Below, piece after piece: positions 1 to 7,841 of a stretch of 7,841 nt of DNA. The DNA lies in IMG/VR virus record IMGVR_UViG_2648501873_000011; one strand, written 5' to 3'. How positions within the stretch are numbered: the stretch's first letter is position 1; every line of letters begins with the position of its first letter. The notes below the pieces were generated by a model. It did no database searches. It saw only the letters and a list, made by a program, of their open reading frames with translations, and had not been told where the DNA came from. Both the position numbers and the translations under genes were made by a program. The DNA comes from a virus. Lineage: Duplodnaviria > Heunggongvirae > Uroviricota > Caudoviricetes.

Positions 1-750
1 TCACTGATCTCCTTCGGTCAACGGAGATTGTATTTTCCGCATTGATTCTCCTTTAAGTTCGATCTTGATACTGCCATGAACCAGTCGATCTAGGATGGCA
101 TCCGCATGTGTGGAGTCTCCGATCATTTTGTACCAGTTTTCCACCGGCAACTGGCTCACTACGATGATTGAGCCTCGTTGGTACATCAGATCCACTATTT
201 CCAGCAGGTCGCTACGCTGTTCTGATGAGAGAGGTTCCAGCCCCCAGTCATCCAGAAGCAGCAGATCGCTATTATTCAGCCTGGTCAAAAGTTTGCTGTA
301 TCTTCCATCAGCATGCCCCTGATAGCACTGTTCCATCAGCGCTTTAAGGCGATAATAGTAGACCTTGTATCCCTGTCGGCAGGCATTATGACCAAGTGCA
401 CATGCCAGGAACGTTTTACCGCTGCCGGTGGCCCCGGTCAGTAAAATATTTTGTTTCAGGGTTAACCAGTTTCCCTGACTGAGTGAACGGATGAGGGCCC
501 TGTCCAGCCCTCTATTGTTACGATAATCCAGCTTTGATAACTCAGCATTAAGTCTGAACCGTGCATGTTTGATCAGACGCTCTGCCTTCCTGTTTTCACG
601 GCAGGTTAGTTCTTCTGCTGTCAGTAATGACAGGCGTTCTTCGAAGCCCAGCTCCTGGTATGTGCCCGGTTGAGCAAGTTGCTTTTTAAGCGCATCACGG
701 AAGCCGGTGAGTTTAAGTGCGGTCAGTTGTTCGTAAAGATGATTCATCAT
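1..750 (-). CDS. istB: IS21-family transposition helper ATPase IstB (AAA+ family, DnaC-like)
   Basis: 249-aa ORF with Walker A GATGSGKT and Walker B LLLLDDWG. Starts 11 nt after the istA stop (ATGATG at 745-750 on the minus strand); stop codon TGA at 1-3 (minus strand), so the ORF is complete. Confidence 0.9.
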   Translation of the reverse strand: MMNHLYEQLTALKLTGFRDALKKQLAQPGTYQELGFEERLSLLTAEELTCRENRKAERLIKHARFRLNAELSKLDYRNNRGLDRALIRSLSQGNWLTLKQNILLTGATGSGKTFLACALGHNACRQGYKVYYYRLKALMEQCYQGHADGRYSKLLTRLNNSDLLLLDDWGLEPLSSEQRSDLLEIVDLMYQRGSIIVVSQLPVENWYKMIGDSTHADAILDRLVHGSIKIELKGESMRKIQSPLTEGDQ

Positions 751-761
751 TGGATCCCGTA

Positions 762-2303
762 TCAGTGGTAATACTCACTGCCGCGTACGTTTTCGTGTTC
801 CATCGTGGATAACAGATCTGGTTTTGGATCCTGAACAGGTTGTTTATCCAGACCTTTTTCCAGGATCGATTTAATACCTGACAGACGCCATACCTTTGTT
901 TTCAGAGCTCTTGCACATGCTGCATTAAGTCTGGCTTTACTGTATTTTTTATGAAGGTTCAGGAGTCCAAGGCAGAAGCGATAGCTTTGTTCCGGATGTG
1001 GACGAGAGTTCAGTATATGAAGCACATAACTATGAGTTTCACTGCCTATGTGCCCCGCCCATTCCAGAAGACGCTCTGGCGTCCAGGTGGCATGCTGTCG
1101 ATGAGCTTCAGGCATGTGCTCGTTGCGGGTACTGTAGCCATAAGTACGCTTGCGCGGGTGCACAGCAACCTCCTGCCCCTGATTGAAGAGTCTTACCAGT
1201 TCTCCGGAGATCCATGCTTCCAGTTGCTGGCCTAACAGCGAACATGGAACCGAGTAGTAATGTTTGTCGATTTCCACGTGGTAATCGGCATGAACTCTGA
1301 CTTTCTTCACCAGGGTGTAACTGTAACTGGCTTCAGGAAGAGGCTTCAGTGCGGGTTTATCAAGCTGGATGAAGAGTTCTGCACGTGAATAACCCAACTT
1401 CTGCATTATTTTGTTATTCAGTCTTTCCAGCAACTCCCGAATGCGCTGATTAAGCGATGCAAGGCTGTAGAAGATCTCATGCCTGATTCGGGCCATGATC
1501 CAGCGTTCAACAACCTGAACGCCAACTTCAGCTTTGGCTTTATCTTTCGGTTTACGTGGCCGCGCAGGCAAAACTGCGACATTATAATGCTCAAGCATCT
1601 GCTGGTAGGTAGGGTTAACGTCAGGATCATACTTACATGCCCTGGATGTGGCGCTTTTCAGATTGTCCGGAACAACAAGTTCAGGAACGCCACCCAACCA
1701 CTGGAAGCAGCGAACATGACTCATCACCCAGTCTTCAAGCTGCTGAGACCAGGTGGCCTCTGCCCATGTGTAACTTGATGCCCCGAGAACAGCTACGATG
1801 ACCTGAGCAGTTCTTATTTCTCCGGTCTCAGGGTCGGTAACGCCAACGGTAGGTCCACAGTAATCAACGAAAAGTTTTTCGCCAGCTTTATGTACCTGAC
1901 GCATTGATGGTGAAGTGGTTTTGAGCCATTCACGGTACATCCGGCAGTAATGGTTATAGCTGTAAAAACCGCCTGGATTACGCTCACAGTATTCTTCCCA
2001 GAGTAGCTGCAGCGTCACGCATTTATTACGCAGTTCCCGGTGTACTGTAGCCCAGTCAGGCAGAGAGTGCTTCTTCATCTTAACCTGGGTCTGAAGGAAC
2101 GCATGTTTTAGTTTTGTATCATCCCATCCTGTAGGTAAGGGCCACTGCTTTATGCCAAGTTGAGCCGCCCGATTAGCATATCTGGATACAACGGAAGGGG
2201 AGATTGCAAGACTACGACCAATTTGTCGATGGCTGAGTCCAACACCGTATTTAAGCCTAAGAATTTCTTTAAGTTTTCTCATAGAAATTGGAACTGTTGG
2301 CAT
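762..2303 (-). CDS. istA: IS21-family transposase IstA (N-terminal HTH plus DDE integrase-like core)
   Basis: 513-aa ORF. N-terminal HTH-like segment (LKYGVGLSHRQIGRSLAISPSVVSRYANRA). Central region with conserved acidic residues (FVDYCGP ... VVPDN ...) consistent with a DDE core. AAGGA Shine-Dalgarno about 5 nt upstream of the ATG on the minus strand. Immediately followed by istB. Confidence 0.9.
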   Translation of the reverse strand: MPTVPISMRKLKEILRLKYGVGLSHRQIGRSLAISPSVVSRYANRAAQLGIKQWPLPTGWDDTKLKHAFLQTQVKMKKHSLPDWATVHRELRNKCVTLQLLWEEYCERNPGGFYSYNHYCRMYREWLKTTSPSMRQVHKAGEKLFVDYCGPTVGVTDPETGEIRTAQVIVAVLGASSYTWAEATWSQQLEDWVMSHVRCFQWLGGVPELVVPDNLKSATSRACKYDPDVNPTYQQMLEHYNVAVLPARPRKPKDKAKAEVGVQVVERWIMARIRHEIFYSLASLNQRIRELLERLNNKIMQKLGYSRAELFIQLDKPALKPLPEASYSYTLVKKVRVHADYHVEIDKHYYSVPCSLLGQQLEAWISGELVRLFNQGQEVAVHPRKRTYGYSTRNEHMPEAHRQHATWTPERLLEWAGHIGSETHSYVLHILNSRPHPEQSYRFCLGLLNLHKKYSKARLNAACARALKTKVWRLSGIKSILEKGLDKQPVQDPKPDLLSTMEHENVRGSEYYH

Positions 2304-2370
2304 AGGTATCCTTTACCGGAATGGCAAAAGATACAGATCAACACACCTGTGAAGTTCCAATAACATTGAT

Positions 2371-2479
2371 GGAGATCACTGAATAACAAAATGAGTCAAA
2401 AGTGATCTCCATCGATGTTATTCAGCGATCTGTTCAAATGTTATTACCCGATCTCGATGGAAGTTATTGAGTGATCTCC
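2371..2479. repeat. Multiple terminal repeats of the IS (putative IstA binding sites), in both orientations
   Basis: GGAGATCACTGAATAAC at 2371-2387; AGTGATCTCC at 2401-2410 (perfect inverted partner of 2371-2380); GTTATTCAGCGATC at 2417-2430; degenerate GTTATTACCCGATCTCG at 2440-2456; GTTATTGAGTGATCTCC at 2463-2479. Five GATC sites fall inside these copies. Confidence 0.7.
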
Positions 2480-2483
2480 TTTC

Positions 2484-2960
2484 ATGAAAATACGCAATCA
2501 GGGCGTCGCGAAGTCCGTCACGCTGCCAAAACTGACCCGTAAGCTCGAAAACTATCGCGGTGCGGGGATGAACGGCAGCGCACCGGTAGACCTCGGCCTT
2601 GATGACGATGCGCTGTCAATGGAGTGGTCGCTCGGGGGCTTCCCGGATTCGGTTATCTGGGAACTTTACGCCGCAACCGGTGTGGATGCCGTGCCGATTC
2701 GTTTTGCAGGCTCTTACCAGCGTGACGATACCGGCGAAACGGTGGCCGTCGAAGTGGTCATGCGTGGCCGTCAGAAAGAAATCGACACCGGCGAGGGTAA
2801 ACAGGGAGAAGACACCGAGTCGAAAATCTCCGTGGTCTGCACCTATTTCCGGCTGACGATGGACGGTAAGGAGCTGGTCGAAATTGACACCATCAACATG
2901 ATTGAGAAGGTGAACGGCGTCGACCGGCTGGAGCAACACCGCCGCAATATCGGCCTGTGA
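2484..2960 (+). pseudogene. FII: Phage P2-type major tail tube protein FII, 5'-truncated by the IS insertion. The ORF start and first ~5 codons (MKIRN) are IS/junction-derived; phage-derived coding sequence begins at ~2497-2499.
   Basis: From QGVAKSVTLPKLTRKLENYRGAGMNG onward the translation matches P2-family tail tube protein through to the C-terminus (..DRLEQHRRNIGL). The conserved N-terminal ~15-20 residues of the family are absent. By recall intact P2 FII is ~172 aa, against 158 aa here. No Shine-Dalgarno precedes the ATG at 2484. Confidence 0.8.
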
Positions 2961-2967
2961 TTTTCAT

Positions 2968-2988
2968 CCGGTCAGCCTGGCTGACCGG
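2968..2988 (+). other. Intergenic inverted repeat (possible RNA stem-loop) between FII and E
   Basis: CCGGTCAG-CCTGG-CTGACCGG: 8-bp perfect stem with a 5-nt loop, starting 8 nt after the FII stop. No U-tract follows, so it is not a canonical intrinsic terminator. Confidence 0.3.
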
Positions 2989-3016
2989 TTAACCCTGATT
3001 CAGAAGTGAGAAAACC

Positions 3017-3292
3017 ATGAACAAAGAAAATGTGATTACCCTGGACAATCCGGTCAAGCGTGGTGAGCAGGTTATCGAACAGGTCACGCTGATGAAACCC
3101 AATGCCGGGACGCTGCGCGGTGTCAGTCTGGCTGCGGTCGCAAACTCCGAAGTCGATGCACTGATTAAAGTGCTGCCGCGCATGACGGCACCGATGCTGA
3201 CTGAGCAGGAGGTCGCCGCGCTGGAGCTGCCTGACCTTGTGGCGCTGGCCGGTAAGGTGGTCGGTTTTTTGTCGCCGAACTCGGTGCAGTAA
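3017..3292 (+). CDS. E: Phage P2-type tail assembly chaperone E
   Basis: 91-aa ORF (MNKENVITLDNPVKRGEQ...) in the position of P2 gene E between FII and T. It ends shortly after a TTTTTTG slippery site. Confidence 0.9.
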   Translation: MNKENVITLDNPVKRGEQVIEQVTLMKPNAGTLRGVSLAAVANSEVDALIKVLPRMTAPMLTEQEVAALELPDLVALAGKVVGFLSPNSVQ

Positions 3293-3444
3293 CGTTTCCG
3301 AAAAATCTCTCGGTCGATGACCTGATGGCGGATGTGGCAGTGATATTTCACTGGCCGCCATCAGAACTGTATCCCATGAGCCTGACCGAACTCATCACAT
3401 GGCGCGAAAAGGCGCTCCGGCGAAGCGGAAACACGAATGAGTAA
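3017..3444 (+). CDS. E+E': Tail assembly chaperone E+E', made by programmed -1 ribosomal frameshift at T TTT TTG (3265-3271)
   Basis: Manual translation of the -1 frame after the slippery heptamer gives ...GFFVAELGAVTFPKNLSVDDLMADVAVIFHWPPSELYPMSLTELITWREKALRRSGNTNE, with stop TAA at 3442-3444. The fusion is 142 aa, the length recalled for P2 E+E'. The -1 frame has no ATG, which is why no separate ORF appears in the track. Confidence 0.8.
3265..3271 (+). promoter_or_regulatory. -1 programmed frameshift slippery heptamer (X XXY YYZ = T TTT TTG)
   Basis: Six Ts followed by G, positioned in the E reading frame as GGT TTT TTG; the downstream -1 frame stays open for 57 codons to 3444. Confidence 0.8.
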
Positions 3445-5884
3445 CAATGTAAAATTACAGGTATTGCTCAGGGCTGTTGACCAGGCATCCCGCCCGTTTA
3501 AATCCATCCGCACAGCGAGTAAGTCGCTGTCGGGGGATATCCGGGAAACACAAAAATCACTGCGCGAGCTGAACGGTCACGCATCCCGTATTGAGGGATT
3601 TCGCAAGACCAGCGCACAGCTTGCCGTGACTGGTCATGCACTTGAAAAGGCACGGCAGGAAGCCGAAGCACTTGCCACACAGTTTAAAAACACTGAACGT
3701 CCGACCCGTGCTCAGGCGAAAGTGCTGGAATCCGCAAAGCGTGCGGCGGAGGACTTACAGGCGAAATATAACCGCCTGACGGATTCCGTTAAGCGCCAGC
3801 AGCGGGAACTGGCCGCTGTGGGAATTAATACCCGCAATCTTGCACATGATGAGCAGGGACTGAAAAACCGTATCAGTGAAACCACCGCACAGCTTAACCG
3901 GCAGCGTGACGCGCTGGCGCGTGTCAGTGCGCAACAGGCAAAACTTAATGCAGTAAAACAGCGTTATCAGGCCGGAAAGGAACTGGCCGGAAATATGGCC
4001 TCAGTGGGCGCTGCCGGTGTGGGGATTGCGGCGGCGGGAACGATGGCCGGAGTTAAGTTGCTGATGCCCGGTTATGAGTTTGCGCAGAAAAACTCAGAAT
4101 TGCAGGCCGTGCTCGGAGTGGCAAAAGACTCCGCCGAAATGACCGCACTACGCAAACAGGCGCGCCAGCTCGGCGACAATACCGCCGCCTCGGCGGATGA
4201 TGCGGCCGGTGCACAGATAATCATCGCGAAAGCGGGTGGGGATGTTGATGCCATTCAGGCGGCAACGCCGGTCACGCTGAATATGGCGCTGGCGAACCGC
4301 CGCACGATGGAAGAAAACGCCGCCCTGCTGATGGGGATGAAATCCGCCTTTCAGCTTTCAAACGATAAGGTCGCTCATATCGGGGATGTTCTCTCCATGA
4401 CGATGAACAAAACCGCCGCCGATTTTGACGGCATGAGCGATGCGCTGACCTATGCCGCACCTGTGGCAAAAAATGCCGGTGTCAGCATTGAAGAAACCGC
4501 CGCAATGGTCGGGGCGCTGCATGATGCAAAAATCACAGGCTCAATGGCGGGGACGGGAAGCCGTGCCGTGTTAAGCCGCCTGCAGGCACCGACGGGAAAA
4601 GCATGGGATGCACTCAAAGAGCTTGGAGTGAAAACCTCAGACAGCAAGGGAAACACCCGGCCAATATTTACCATTCTGAAAGAAATGCAGGCCAGTTTTG
4701 AGAAAAACCGGCTCGGTACTGCCCAGCAGGCTGAATACATGAAAACCATTTTCGGGGAGGAGGCCAGCTCAGCCGCCGCCGTGCTGATGACTGCCGCCTC
4801 AACCGGAAAGCTGGACAAACTGACCGCTGCGTTTAAAGCCTCAGACGGGAAGACCGCCGAGCTGGTAAATATCATGCAGGACAACCTCGGCGGTGACTTT
4901 AAAGAGTTTCAGTCCGCTTATGAGGCGGTGGGGACTGACCTGTTTGACCAGCAGGAAGGCGCACTGCGTAAGCTCACGCAGACGGCCACAAAGTATGTGT
5001 TAAAACTCGACGGCTGGATCCAGAAAAACAAATCACTGGCGTCAACCATCGGCCTCATTGCCGGTGGCGCACTGGCGCTTACTGGCATCATCGGTGCCAT
5101 TGGTCTTGTAGCCTGGCCGGTTATCACCGGCATCAATGCCATCATTGCTGCAGCAGGCGCAATGGGGGCAATTTTCACGACGGTTGGCAGTGCCGTTATG
5201 ACGGCCATCGGGGCGATTAGCTGGCCGGTAGTGGCCGTGGTGGCCGCCATTGTCGCCGGAGCGTTACTTATCCGTAAATACTGGGAGCCTGTCAGCGCAT
5301 TCTTTGGCGGTGTGGTGGAAGGGCTGAAAGCGGCATTTGCGCCGGTGGGAGAACTGTTCACGCCACTTAAGCCGGTGTTTGACTGGCTGGGTGAAAAGTT
5401 ACAGGCTGCGTGGCAGTGGTTTAAAAACCTGATTGCCCCGGTCAAAGCCACCCAGGACACCCTGAACCGTTGCCGTGACACGGGCGTCATGTTCGGGCAG
5501 GCACTGGCTGACGCGCTGATGCTGCCGCTTAATGCGTTCAACAAATTACGCAGCGGCATTGACTGGGTACTGGAAAAGCTCGGGTTCATCAACAAAGAGT
5601 CAGACACACTTGACCAGACAGCCGCCAGAACTCATGCCGCCACGTATGGCACCGGTGGTTATATTCCGGCGACCAGCTCTTATGCAGGTTATCAGGCTTA
5701 TCAGCCGGTTACGGCACCGGCTGGCCGCTCTTATGTGGACCAGAGTAAAAACGAATATCACATCAGCCTGACGGGTGGTACTGCGCCGGGGACACAGCTT
5801 GACCGCCAGTTACAGGATGCGCTCGAAAAATACGAGCGGGATAAACGTGCGCGCGCCCGTGCCAGCATGATGCATGACGGTTAA
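3437..5884 (+). CDS. T: Phage P2-type tail tape measure protein T
   Basis: 815-aa ORF directly after E/E'. The N-terminal ~180 residues are rich in heptad-like charged/Ala/Leu/Gln sequence (coiled-coil character). A long Gly/Ala/Ile hydrophobic segment (LASTIGLIAGGALALTGIIGAIGLVAWPVITGINAIIAAAGAMGAIFTT...ALLIRKYW, about nt 5036-5285) is typical of tape measure proteins. Confidence 0.92.
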   Translation: MSNNVKLQVLLRAVDQASRPFKSIRTASKSLSGDIRETQKSLRELNGHASRIEGFRKTSAQLAVTGHALEKARQEAEALATQFKNTERPTRAQAKVLESAKRAAEDLQAKYNRLTDSVKRQQRELAAVGINTRNLAHDEQGLKNRISETTAQLNRQRDALARVSAQQAKLNAVKQRYQAGKELAGNMASVGAAGVGIAAAGTMAGVKLLMPGYEFAQKNSELQAVLGVAKDSAEMTALRKQARQLGDNTAASADDAAGAQIIIAKAGGDVDAIQAATPVTLNMALANRRTMEENAALLMGMKSAFQLSNDKVAHIGDVLSMTMNKTAADFDGMSDALTYAAPVAKNAGVSIEETAAMVGALHDAKITGSMAGTGSRAVLSRLQAPTGKAWDALKELGVKTSDSKGNTRPIFTILKEMQASFEKNRLGTAQQAEYMKTIFGEEASSAAAVLMTAASTGKLDKLTAAFKASDGKTAELVNIMQDNLGGDFKEFQSAYEAVGTDLFDQQEGALRKLTQTATKYVLKLDGWIQKNKSLASTIGLIAGGALALTGIIGAIGLVAWPVITGINAIIAAAGAMGAIFTTVGSAVMTAIGAISWPVVAVVAAIVAGALLIRKYWEPVSAFFGGVVEGLKAAFAPVGELFTPLKPVFDWLGEKLQAAWQWFKNLIAPVKATQDTLNRCRDTGVMFGQALADALMLPLNAFNKLRSGIDWVLEKLGFINKESDTLDQTAARTHAATYGTGGYIPATSSYAGYQAYQPVTAPAGRSYVDQSKNEYHISLTGGTAPGTQLDRQLQDALEKYERDKRARARASMMHDG

Positions 5885-5898
5885 GGAGGTGATGAAAA

Positions 5899-6378
5899 AT
5901 GATGCTCGCGTTAGGGATGTTTGTTTTTATGCGCCAGACGCTGCCACACCAGACCATGCAGCGTGAATCAGATTATCGCTGGCCGTCAAATTCCCGTATC
6001 GGTAAACGGGATGCCTACCAGTTTCTAGGTGTGGGTGAGGAAAACATGACGCTTGCCGGTGTGCTTTATCCCGAACTGACCGGCGGCAAGCTGACGATGA
6101 CCACGCTCAGACTGATGGCAGAGGAAGGCCGGGCGTGGCCGTTGCTGGATGGCACCGGCATGATTTACGGTATGTATGTCATCAGCAAGGTGAGTGAAAC
6201 AGGGAGTATTTTCTTTGCCGACGGCACACCCCGGAAAATTGATTTTACGCTGTCACTTACCCGCGTTGATGAATCACTGGCCGCGCTTTATGGCGATATC
6301 GGTAAACAGGCGGAATCGCTCATCGGTAAGGCGGGCAGTATGGCAACTAAATTCACGGGTATGACGGGGGCGGGATAA
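5899..6378 (+). CDS. U: Phage P2-type tail protein U
   Basis: 159-aa ORF (MMLALGMFVFMRQTLPHQ...). Strong Shine-Dalgarno AAGGAGGTGA at 5883-5892. Lies between T and D as in P2. Confidence 0.85.
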   Translation: MMLALGMFVFMRQTLPHQTMQRESDYRWPSNSRIGKRDAYQFLGVGEENMTLAGVLYPELTGGKLTMTTLRLMAEEGRAWPLLDGTGMIYGMYVISKVSETGSIFFADGTPRKIDFTLSLTRVDESLAALYGDIGKQAESLIGKAGSMATKFTGMTGAG

Positions 6379-7541
6379 TGCTGGATACGCTGACATTTGA
6401 TGCAGGCAGTACGCTGACGCCGGATTACATGCTGATGCTCGACAGCAGGGATATTACCGGCAATATCAGCGACCGTCTGATGAGCATGACCCTGACGGAT
6501 AACCGGGGCTTTGAGGCTGACCAGCTTGATATTGAACTGAACGATGCCGACGGGCAGGTCGGGCTGCCGGTTCGTGGCGCTGTCCTGACGGTGTATATCG
6601 GCTGGAAAGGGTTTGCCCTGGTATGCAAAGGGAAATTTACCGTTGATGAGGTTGAACACCGGGGCGCGCCGGATGTGGTCACCATCCGTGCCCGGAGTGC
6701 AGATTTTCGCGGGACGCTCAATTCCCGCCGGGAAGGCTCATGGCATGACACCACGCTCGGTGCGATTGTTGAGGCGATAGCCTCCCGTAACAGGCTGGAA
6801 GCCAGTGTCGCTCCGTCACTGGCCGGAATTAAAATCCCGCACATCGACCAGTCGCAGGAGTCTGATGCGAAATTTCTGACCCGTCTTGCAGAACGCAACG
6901 GCGGTGAGGTGTCGGTAAAAATGGGAAAACTGTTGTTTCTCAAAGCGGGGCAGGGGGGGACGGCCAGCGGTAAAAAAATCCCGCAGATTACCATCACCCG
7001 CAGCGACGGTGACCGTCATCATTTTGCGATTGCTGACCGTGGAGCCTATACCGGCGTAACGGCAAAGTGGCTTCACACCAAAGACCCGAAGCCACAAAAG
7101 CAGAAGGTAAAACTGAAACGCAAAAAGAAAGAGAAACACCTGCGCGCACTGGAGCACCCGAAAGCGAAACCGGTCACGCAGAAGAAAGCGCCAAAAGCAC
7201 CGGAAGCGCGCGAAGGTGAATACATGGCAGGTGAAGCTGACAACGTTTTTGCCCTGACCACGGTATATGCCACAAAAGCGCAGGCTATGCGTGCCGCTCA
7301 GGCGAAGTGGGATAAACTGCAACGGGGCGTTGCGGAGTTCTCCATCATCCTGGCTACCGGTCGTGCAGATATTTACACGGAAACACCGGTCAGAGTGTCA
7401 GGCTTTAAGCGCGTCATAGACGAGCAGGACTGGACAATCACTAAGGTGACACATTTTCTGAATAATAGCGGCTTCACGACGTCCTTAGAGCTTGAGGTCA
7501 GGCTTTCTGATGTGGAGTACGAAACAGAAGATTATGAGTGA
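6378..7541 (+). CDS. D: Phage P2-type tail/baseplate protein D (phage late control gene D family; gp27/VgrG-N-like hub)
   Basis: 387-aa ORF (MLDTLTFDAGSTLTPDYMLMLDSRDITGNISDRL...). Its start overlaps the U stop (TAATG at 6375-6380). Contains a lysine-rich basic stretch at about nt 7078-7215. Confidence 0.9.
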   Translation: MLDTLTFDAGSTLTPDYMLMLDSRDITGNISDRLMSMTLTDNRGFEADQLDIELNDADGQVGLPVRGAVLTVYIGWKGFALVCKGKFTVDEVEHRGAPDVVTIRARSADFRGTLNSRREGSWHDTTLGAIVEAIASRNRLEASVAPSLAGIKIPHIDQSQESDAKFLTRLAERNGGEVSVKMGKLLFLKAGQGGTASGKKIPQITITRSDGDRHHFAIADRGAYTGVTAKWLHTKDPKPQKQKVKLKRKKKEKHLRALEHPKAKPVTQKKAPKAPEAREGEYMAGEADNVFALTTVYATKAQAMRAAQAKWDKLQRGVAEFSIILATGRADIYTETPVRVSGFKRVIDEQDWTITKVTHFLNNSGFTTSLELEVRLSDVEYETEDYE

Positions 7542-7559
7542 TGTATTTTGTTTATCTGT

Positions 7560-7588
7560 TTGTTTTATAAGGATAAATTAACTAAAAT
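7560..7588 (+). promoter_or_regulatory. Putative sigma70-type promoter for ogr (-35 TTGTTT 7560-7565, 17-bp spacer, -10 TAAAAT 7583-7588)
   Basis: Hexamers read directly from the AT-rich D-ogr intergenic region; P2 ogr is known to have its own promoter. Not validated. Confidence 0.3.
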
Positions 7589-7622
7589 GGCACTATCAAC
7601 AAAACCGGAAGAGGTGCTCGCG

Positions 7623-7841
7623 ATGTTTCATTGTCCTTTATGCCAGCATGCCGCACATGCGCGTACAAGCCGCTATATCACTGACACGACAAAAGAGCGT
7701 TATCACCAGTGTCAGAACGTGAATTGCAGCGCCACGTTCATCACCTATGAGTCGGTACAGAGATACATCGTGAAGCCGGGAGAAGTCCACGCCGTAAGGC
7801 CGCACCCGTTGCCGTCAGGGCAGCAAATTATGTGGATGTGA
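7623..7841 (+). CDS. ogr: Phage P2-type late gene transcriptional activator Ogr (C4 zinc-finger protein)
   Basis: 72-aa ORF MFHCPLCQHAAHARTSRYITDTTKERYHQCQNVNCSATFITYESVQRYIVKPGEVHAVRPHPLPSGQQIMWM, with the CxxC...CxxxxC zinc-binding arrangement. Shine-Dalgarno GGAAGAGG lies 8 nt upstream of the ATG at 7623. The stop TGA is at 7839-7841, the window end. Confidence 0.9.
   Translation: MFHCPLCQHAAHARTSRYITDTTKERYHQCQNVNCSATFITYESVQRYIVKPGEVHAVRPHPLPSGQQIMWM

Follow-up and report, generated by a model that had tools for sequence, protein, structure and literature searches.

An apparently recent ISEc12 insertion in the tail tube gene of a P2-like prophage and the intact tail genes downstream of it

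Phage P2 carries its tail genes FI-FII-E-E'-T-U-D in a late operon that is transcribed from a single Ogr-dependent promoter, P_F, located upstream of FI (PMC3931495). Within this operon E (91 aa) and the longer E+E' (142 aa) are produced by way of the frameshift site TTTTTTG (PMC3091744). Insertion sequences of the IS21 family can form hybrid promoters, and the outward-facing -35 element documented for the family is located within the right inverted repeat, IRR (PMC9330008). The DNA described here brings these two systems together.

The window (the whole stretch of 7,841 nucleotides that was analysed) is a 100% match to a draft assembly of Escherichia coli (GCA_000711555.1, contig JONC01000118.1, positions 86-7926), window base 1 being base 86 of this source contig. 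From position 2497 to 7841 the sequence is that of a P2-like prophage at its right-hand end, with Pfam domains in the order PF04985, PF10109, PF10145, PF06995, PF05954, PF04606, corresponding to FII-E-E'-T-U-D-ogr. FI and P_F lie outside the window. The phage features are as follows.

2497-2960, plus strand: tail tube gene FII, truncated at its 5' end (PF04985, profile positions 17-165 only; aligned to the intact 172-aa FII of prophage L003)
2968-2988, plus strand: perfect 9-bp hairpin between FII and E, not followed by a T-run (folding compared with shuffles)
3017-3292, plus strand: E, tail assembly chaperone, 91 aa (PF10109; 100% identical to that of L003)
3017-3444, plus strand: E+E', 142 aa, by -1 frameshift at TTTTTTG (3265-3271), stop codon TAA at 3442-3444 (our translation; P2 precedent in PMC3091744)
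3437-5884, plus strand: T, tape measure protein, 815 aa (PF10145; ATG at 3437)
5899-6378, plus strand: U, tail protein, 159 aa (PF06995)
6378-7541, plus strand: D, baseplate hub (late control D) protein, 387 aa (PF05954)
7623-7841, plus strand: ogr, late-gene activator, 72 aa, intact (PF04606; 100% identical to those of L003 and of isolated phage L014)

A first-pass annotation had described the whole interval 2497-7541 as full-length. This is true of E to D, but not of the FII remnant at 2497-2960, which lacks its first 19 codons; a complete FII has 172 aa and only codons 20-172 are present. In E, E+E', T, U and D the list of open reading frames, our own translation and Pfam agree with the earlier reading that the frames are free of frameshifts and premature stops; the lengths of the tail genes match those of intact prophages (L003-L007) and of the isolated P2-like phage L014. 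The frameshift site of E+E' is retained, as had been claimed, at 3265-3271, and the 91- and 142-aa products predicted from it fit the -1 frameshift of P2. Coupled overlaps, which the same annotation had seen throughout, are kept between E' and T (8 nt) and between U and D (1 nt, TAATG), but T and U do not overlap; they are separated by a 14-nt spacer containing GGAGG, which is the same in all relatives. The hairpin between FII and E was considered as a structured element and rejected, its folding in a 71-nt context being not significantly different from that of shuffles (z = -1.3).

To the left of the prophage genes lies an insertion sequence, with the following features at and near its junction with FII.

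1-2496, minus strand: ISEc12 (IS21 family), from the RefSeq annotation of the same sequence; 2,496 of its 2,581 bp are inside the window
1-750, minus strand: istB, helper ATPase, 249 aa (PF01695 IstB_IS21, E = 2e-67)
762-2303, minus strand: istA, transposase, 513 aa (PF00665 rve and PF22483 Mu-transposase C-terminal domain)
2304-2496, minus strand: left IS end, which precedes istA and adjoins phage DNA, with repeated GATCTCC/GGAGATC motifs
2484-2960, plus strand: chimeric IS/FII open reading frame, 158 aa, listed by gene callers in the source contig
2497-2501, no strand assigned: ATCAG, expected to be one half (the right-hand copy) of a 5-bp target-site duplication, and the only copy in view

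The gene content is that of the IS21 family, istA (a DDE/rve transposase) being followed by istB (an AAA+ helper) on one strand. Both genes lie on the minus strand, confirming that the IS is antisense to the tail operon. Its size had been given as about 2.5 kb; the whole element is 2,581 bp long, and the remaining 85 bp, together with the right inverted repeat, lie to the left of the window in the source contig, whose first base is that of this inverted repeat (TGCGTATTACCG...). The terminal repeats of ISEc12 are TGCGTATTACCGTGAAGGAGATC and TGCGTATTTTCATGAAAGGAGATC, and both ends begin TGCGTATT (the right end being read from the source contig, beyond the window). Strain 463, an unrelated E. 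coli, carries a copy that matches this element at 100% identity over all 2,581 bp.

The source contig was located by exact-protein look-up of T, and the same protein was present in 184 blocks of the public collection. Two prophages among these, L003 and L006, have the identical T protein and an intact 172-aa FII, and occupy the same chromosomal site, adjoining fieF. The chromosomal flank to the right of ogr (8,043 bp) is 100% identical between the source contig and the strains carrying L003 and L006, and the module at 2497-7841 differs from theirs at only 2 of 5,345 nt, both in D. The difference at position 6611 (GGG in the window, GGT in the relatives) is synonymous, while that at 6958 replaces valine (GTG in all relatives) with glycine (GGG). 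Both are changes from T to G that extend a run of G, with the derived state in the window. A separate assembly (L010, of run SRR1191664) has the same IS/FII junction and T at both positions, making its module 100% identical to those of the intact prophages; given the G-run context, the two G calls are more likely to be draft errors than private mutations.

More distant relatives show lower identity. In complete E. coli genomes the closest copy of the module has 98.2% identity, and isolated P2-like phages have 97.2-97.6% nucleotide identity over 98% of the query (83 phage records covering at least 80%). Compared with isolated phage L014 there are 106 synonymous and 16 non-synonymous differences. 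This mostly synonymous divergence goes back to the time before the insertion, when the lineage was that of a functional phage, and says nothing of what happened afterwards.

The junction itself is rare. Within a very large collection the chimeric IS/FII open reading frame was found in only two assemblies, GCA_000711555.1 and L010. The IS/FII junction was absent from all 5,426 complete E. coli genomes in RefSeq, and an exact search for it in species-representative genomes gave no match.

The first-pass annotation had proposed a recent insertion as one of two reasons for the intact genes, with near-identity to intact P2-like prophages as its sign, and the comparison gives such near-identity (99.96-100%). 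A recent insertion is strongly supported by these sequence comparisons, because the module has this identity to intact prophages at the same site, the flanks are identical and the junction is private to one strain. In E. coli about 1e-7 to 1e-6 substitutions accumulate per site per year; at such rates 0-2 changes in the ~13 kb compared would, by our own estimate, put the age of the insertion at a few centuries at most. E to D would thus be intact because too little time has passed since the insertion for mutations to build up. As intact frames are expected after so short a time, they carry no information on expression or selection, and 0-2 substitutions give no statistical power for or against selection after the insertion.

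Taken as a whole, it is very probable that ISEc12 inserted very recently in FII of a P2-like prophage, and that E to D are intact for lack of time. An active copy of ISEc12 would have transposed into FII at codon 19/20, the prophage concerned lying beside fieF in one E. coli lineage only. FII is thereby beheaded, and antisense IS DNA, 2.6 kb long and for the most part untranslated, would come to lie between the FI-proximal P_F and the genes FII'-E-E'-T-U-D (FII' being the truncated gene), so that late transcription is probably lost through polarity. Such a prophage should no longer build tails, a defect in tail assembly being the expected outcome. The remainder of the prophage presumably still lies beyond the IS, as it would after a simple insertion. 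With essentially no mutations since the event, E, E+E', T, U and D would have stayed intact without any need to invoke expression or selection. The event is of an already known kind and is ordinary.

Position 2497 is the first phage base past the IS terminus, and alignment to the intact gene places the insertion point between codons 19 and 20 of FII. The 158-aa open reading frame takes its ATG and the next four codons from the IS, in frame with FII codons 20-172, giving an N-terminus of MKIRN-QGVAK... in place of MAMPRKLKLMNVFLNGYSYQGVAK... in intact FII. Inspection of the sequence revealed no Shine-Dalgarno before this IS-supplied ATG. In an intact relative the uninterrupted target site reads ...CAGCTATCAGGGCGTC; a simple insertion predicts a left junction that contains ...CAGCTATCAG, with ...GGCTACAGCTATCAG followed directly by TGCGTATTACCGTGAAGG.

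As the source contig starts at the IS end, the left junction is out of view, and the IS could instead have landed further upstream, with an adjacent deletion or rearrangement then extending to FII codon 20 and leaving the module as an orphaned prophage remnant. A related element, ISPve1 (IS21 family), often deletes DNA beside its 5' end (PMC9330008), and it is the 5' (istA) end of ISEc12 that abuts FII'. Against this, 11 of 12 other ISEc12 insertions fetched from the same operon are simple, with direct target duplications of 5-7 bp (our script found none at the remaining locus, L018). A deletion would in any case be equally recent, and the reason for the intact state of E to D would be unchanged. 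We regard this course of events as improbable, and a simple insertion by a recently active ISEc12 as the better description of the junction.

A second possibility, also raised in the first-pass annotation, is that the tail genes have been kept by transcription and selection, with transcripts arising at or inside the left IS end or by read-through. E to D and ogr are indeed all intact, IS21-family elements can form hybrid promoters (PMC9330008), and FII' has an in-frame ATG that comes from the IS. Yet identity of 99.96-100% to intact relatives fully accounts for the intactness, and it is not obvious what the gene products could be used for once the tail tube is missing. Nor does the sequence supply a promoter: a strict scan for the sigma-70 consensus found none on the plus strand in 2250-3440, and a lenient scan of the same region gave five sites compared with 4.6 in shuffles, which is the chance level. 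The end of the IS that abuts FII' is the left end (IRL), and the documented outward -35 would point away from the tail genes because IRL, not IRR, faces FII'. ISEc12 is also found near or in the module in both orientations (within 4.4 kb of it in 37 complete genomes antisense, as in the window, and in 50 sense).

Activation by Ogr fares no better. With TGT-N12-ACA taken as the motif of P_F, a single plus-strand copy occurs in the left end of the IS at 2348-2365, and it might be read in favour of local transcription, but about two per strand are expected by chance in 7.8 kb and its spacing from any -10 is wrong; it was rejected as an Ogr-type promoter. A candidate for P_F can, by our own reading, be seen ~90 nt upstream of FI in intact L003, where TGT-N12-CCA is accompanied by a -10 of sequence GAAAAT. 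Transcripts reading through from P_F would encounter 2.6 kb with no plus-strand open reading frame longer than 99 aa, and Rho-dependent termination within the IS is therefore likely, judging from known polarity. Low-level transcription of E to D is possible; nothing in the sequence calls for it. An outward IS promoter, expression or selection as the cause of intactness finds no support in the sequence and is unneeded given the near-identity to relatives, and we consider it very unlikely.

An assembly artefact, in which a repeat had caused a chimeric join between IS and FII, is scarcely credible, even though the assembly is a draft that breaks at the end of a multi-copy IS. NCBI and Logan assemblies, which are different, both contain the junction; it coincides exactly with the terminus of the IS, and 12 insertions in complete genomes are built in the same way.

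A very recent insertion in FII, which is the reading we prefer, would be one of many in this operon. Of ~1,566 genomes that carry the module, 87 have ISEc12 no more than 4.4 kb from it, about ten times the naive random expectation. The 12 further loci that were fetched have 12 different insertion points (four in FI, one at the 3' end of FII, one at the E/E' boundary, three in T and three in D). Six are sense and six antisense, so that with the window there are 13 sites, seven of them antisense. The copies of ISEc12 at the 12 loci share 99.9-100% identity with the one in the window. Neighbouring tail genes are annotated as intact at 11 of the 12; the other locus, L019, is frameshifted in FI, T and istA.

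Two regularities were looked for among these insertions and rejected. There is no orientation bias of ISEc12 with respect to the operon (50 genomes with the IS flipped in the query compared with 37 in the original orientation); such a bias could have pointed to selection acting for or against outward transcription. The target site in the window, ATCAGGGC, resembles that in strain 463, CTCAGGGC, but ten further sites lack the motif, and a common target motif was not accepted.

The frequency of ISEc12 in these operons may be due to target preference, to tolerance of insertions in prophage DNA or to selection to disarm the prophage. It is a tentative and rather doubtful suggestion that ISEc12 prefers P2-like tail operons, or that hosts repeatedly profit from knocking the operon out. 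If it were true, IS21-type elements would be a recurrent and fast route by which E. coli disarms P2-like prophages, and the window would be a fresh example. The repeated insertion of ISEc12 in the tail operon across E. coli is the sole wider point to be drawn from this locus.

Otherwise its value is in showing, cleanly and in a datable form, how prophage decay begins: a single IS hit strips the tail tube and, probably, the late promoter from five otherwise perfect genes. For annotation, 'defective' is the proper label for such a prophage, long and intact though its open reading frames are, and the 158-aa 'tail tube' open reading frame should be recognized as an IS/FII chimera.

Compared with the late tail operon and ogr of phage P2 (Peduovirus), the window has the same gene order, the same lengths (91, 142, 815, 159, 387 and 72 aa for E, E+E', T, U, D and Ogr) and the same TTTTTTG frameshift site. 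It differs in that FII is without its first 19 codons and an IS parts the operon from the position of P_F. Other ISEc12 insertions in E. coli also resemble it: the same element (99.9-100%) is found in the same operon with downstream genes mostly intact, as in strain 463 (in T), NRZ95651 (at the 3' end of FI), ST131 strain 751 (in D) and APEC E19035 (at the 3' end of FII), whereas the site at FII codon 19/20 is private to a single strain. Like ISKpn7 upstream of blaKPC, ISEc12 is an IS21-family element directly upstream of genes that have been separated from their own promoter; the difference is that the documented outward -35 is in IRR, whereas here IRL faces the genes, and promoter-like sequence does not rise above chance.

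The window differs from the intact sister prophages at just two positions, 6611 and 6958, both in gene D. Each is a T to G change that extends a run of G (GGT to GGG and GGGGGTG to GGGGGGG, respectively), and neither is present in the assembly that Logan provides for SRR1191664, where the IS junction is identical. The G at 6611 and that at 6958 are probably errors of the deposited draft rather than mutations.

In P2-like prophages of E. coli genomes, ISEc12 was found at no fewer than 13 distinct positions of the tail operon, from FI to D. Across the window and 12 other loci (L001, L002, L011-L013 and L015-L021) both orientations occur and the copies are near-identical; duplications of 5 to 7 bp are present at 11 of the 12 other loci. 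No target motif common to the insertion sites was found. Among approximately 1,566 complete genomes carrying the module, 87 have ISEc12 within 4.4 kb of it (≤ 4.4 kb), and the element looks enriched near the module relative to a naive random expectation.

The following features of the window, all on the + strand, lie in or downstream of the left end of ISEc12:

2348-2365, +: match to the Ogr-type element TGT-N12-ACA, inside the ISEc12 left end
2484-2960, +: chimeric IS/FII open reading frame (MKIRN followed by FII residues 20-172)
2968-2988, +: GC-rich hairpin with a perfect 9-bp stem (CCGGUCAGC...GCUGACCGG), in the FII-E spacer
7548-7841, +: ogr open frame, accepted ATG at 7623, frame open upstream of this ATG

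The 158-aa 'tail tube' protein is an IS/FII chimera, listed by gene callers because the left end of ISEc12 supplies an in-frame ATG. No Shine-Dalgarno sequence precedes this ATG (2484). The TGT-N12-ACA match is the sole one on the + strand of the window; it was rejected as an Ogr-type promoter, as such matches are expected at this frequency by chance and its spacing to a -10 is incorrect. The hairpin has no T-run 3' of its stem and was not significant when compared with shuffled sequences. It could have a role in the ratio of FI/FII to E-D expression or in mRNA stability.

The length of ogr varies with the caller (97 aa from a TTG start as a mechanical ORF, 84 aa from one gene caller, 72 aa in RefSeq and P2), which is a difference in start-codon annotation only.

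An identical T protein is encoded at two chromosomal sites, adjoining fieF and adjoining yegQ (peptidase U32). When prophages of the two site groups were compared (L003, L006 and L008 against L004, L005 and L007), FII through T were near-identical, with one synonymous difference, and U (98.5% identity) and D (96.6%) were divergent. This is a mosaic pattern.

The intact sister prophage L003 also carries two further genes, likewise present in L004-L007:

L003, 5946-7591: gene for a 199-aa protein and DndB-like gene (PF14072)

The 199-aa protein has no Pfam match. The pair is probably a defence cassette; in L003-L007 it has the gene for tail-fibre assembly on one side and FI on the other, the position occupied by the Z/fun cargo in P2.
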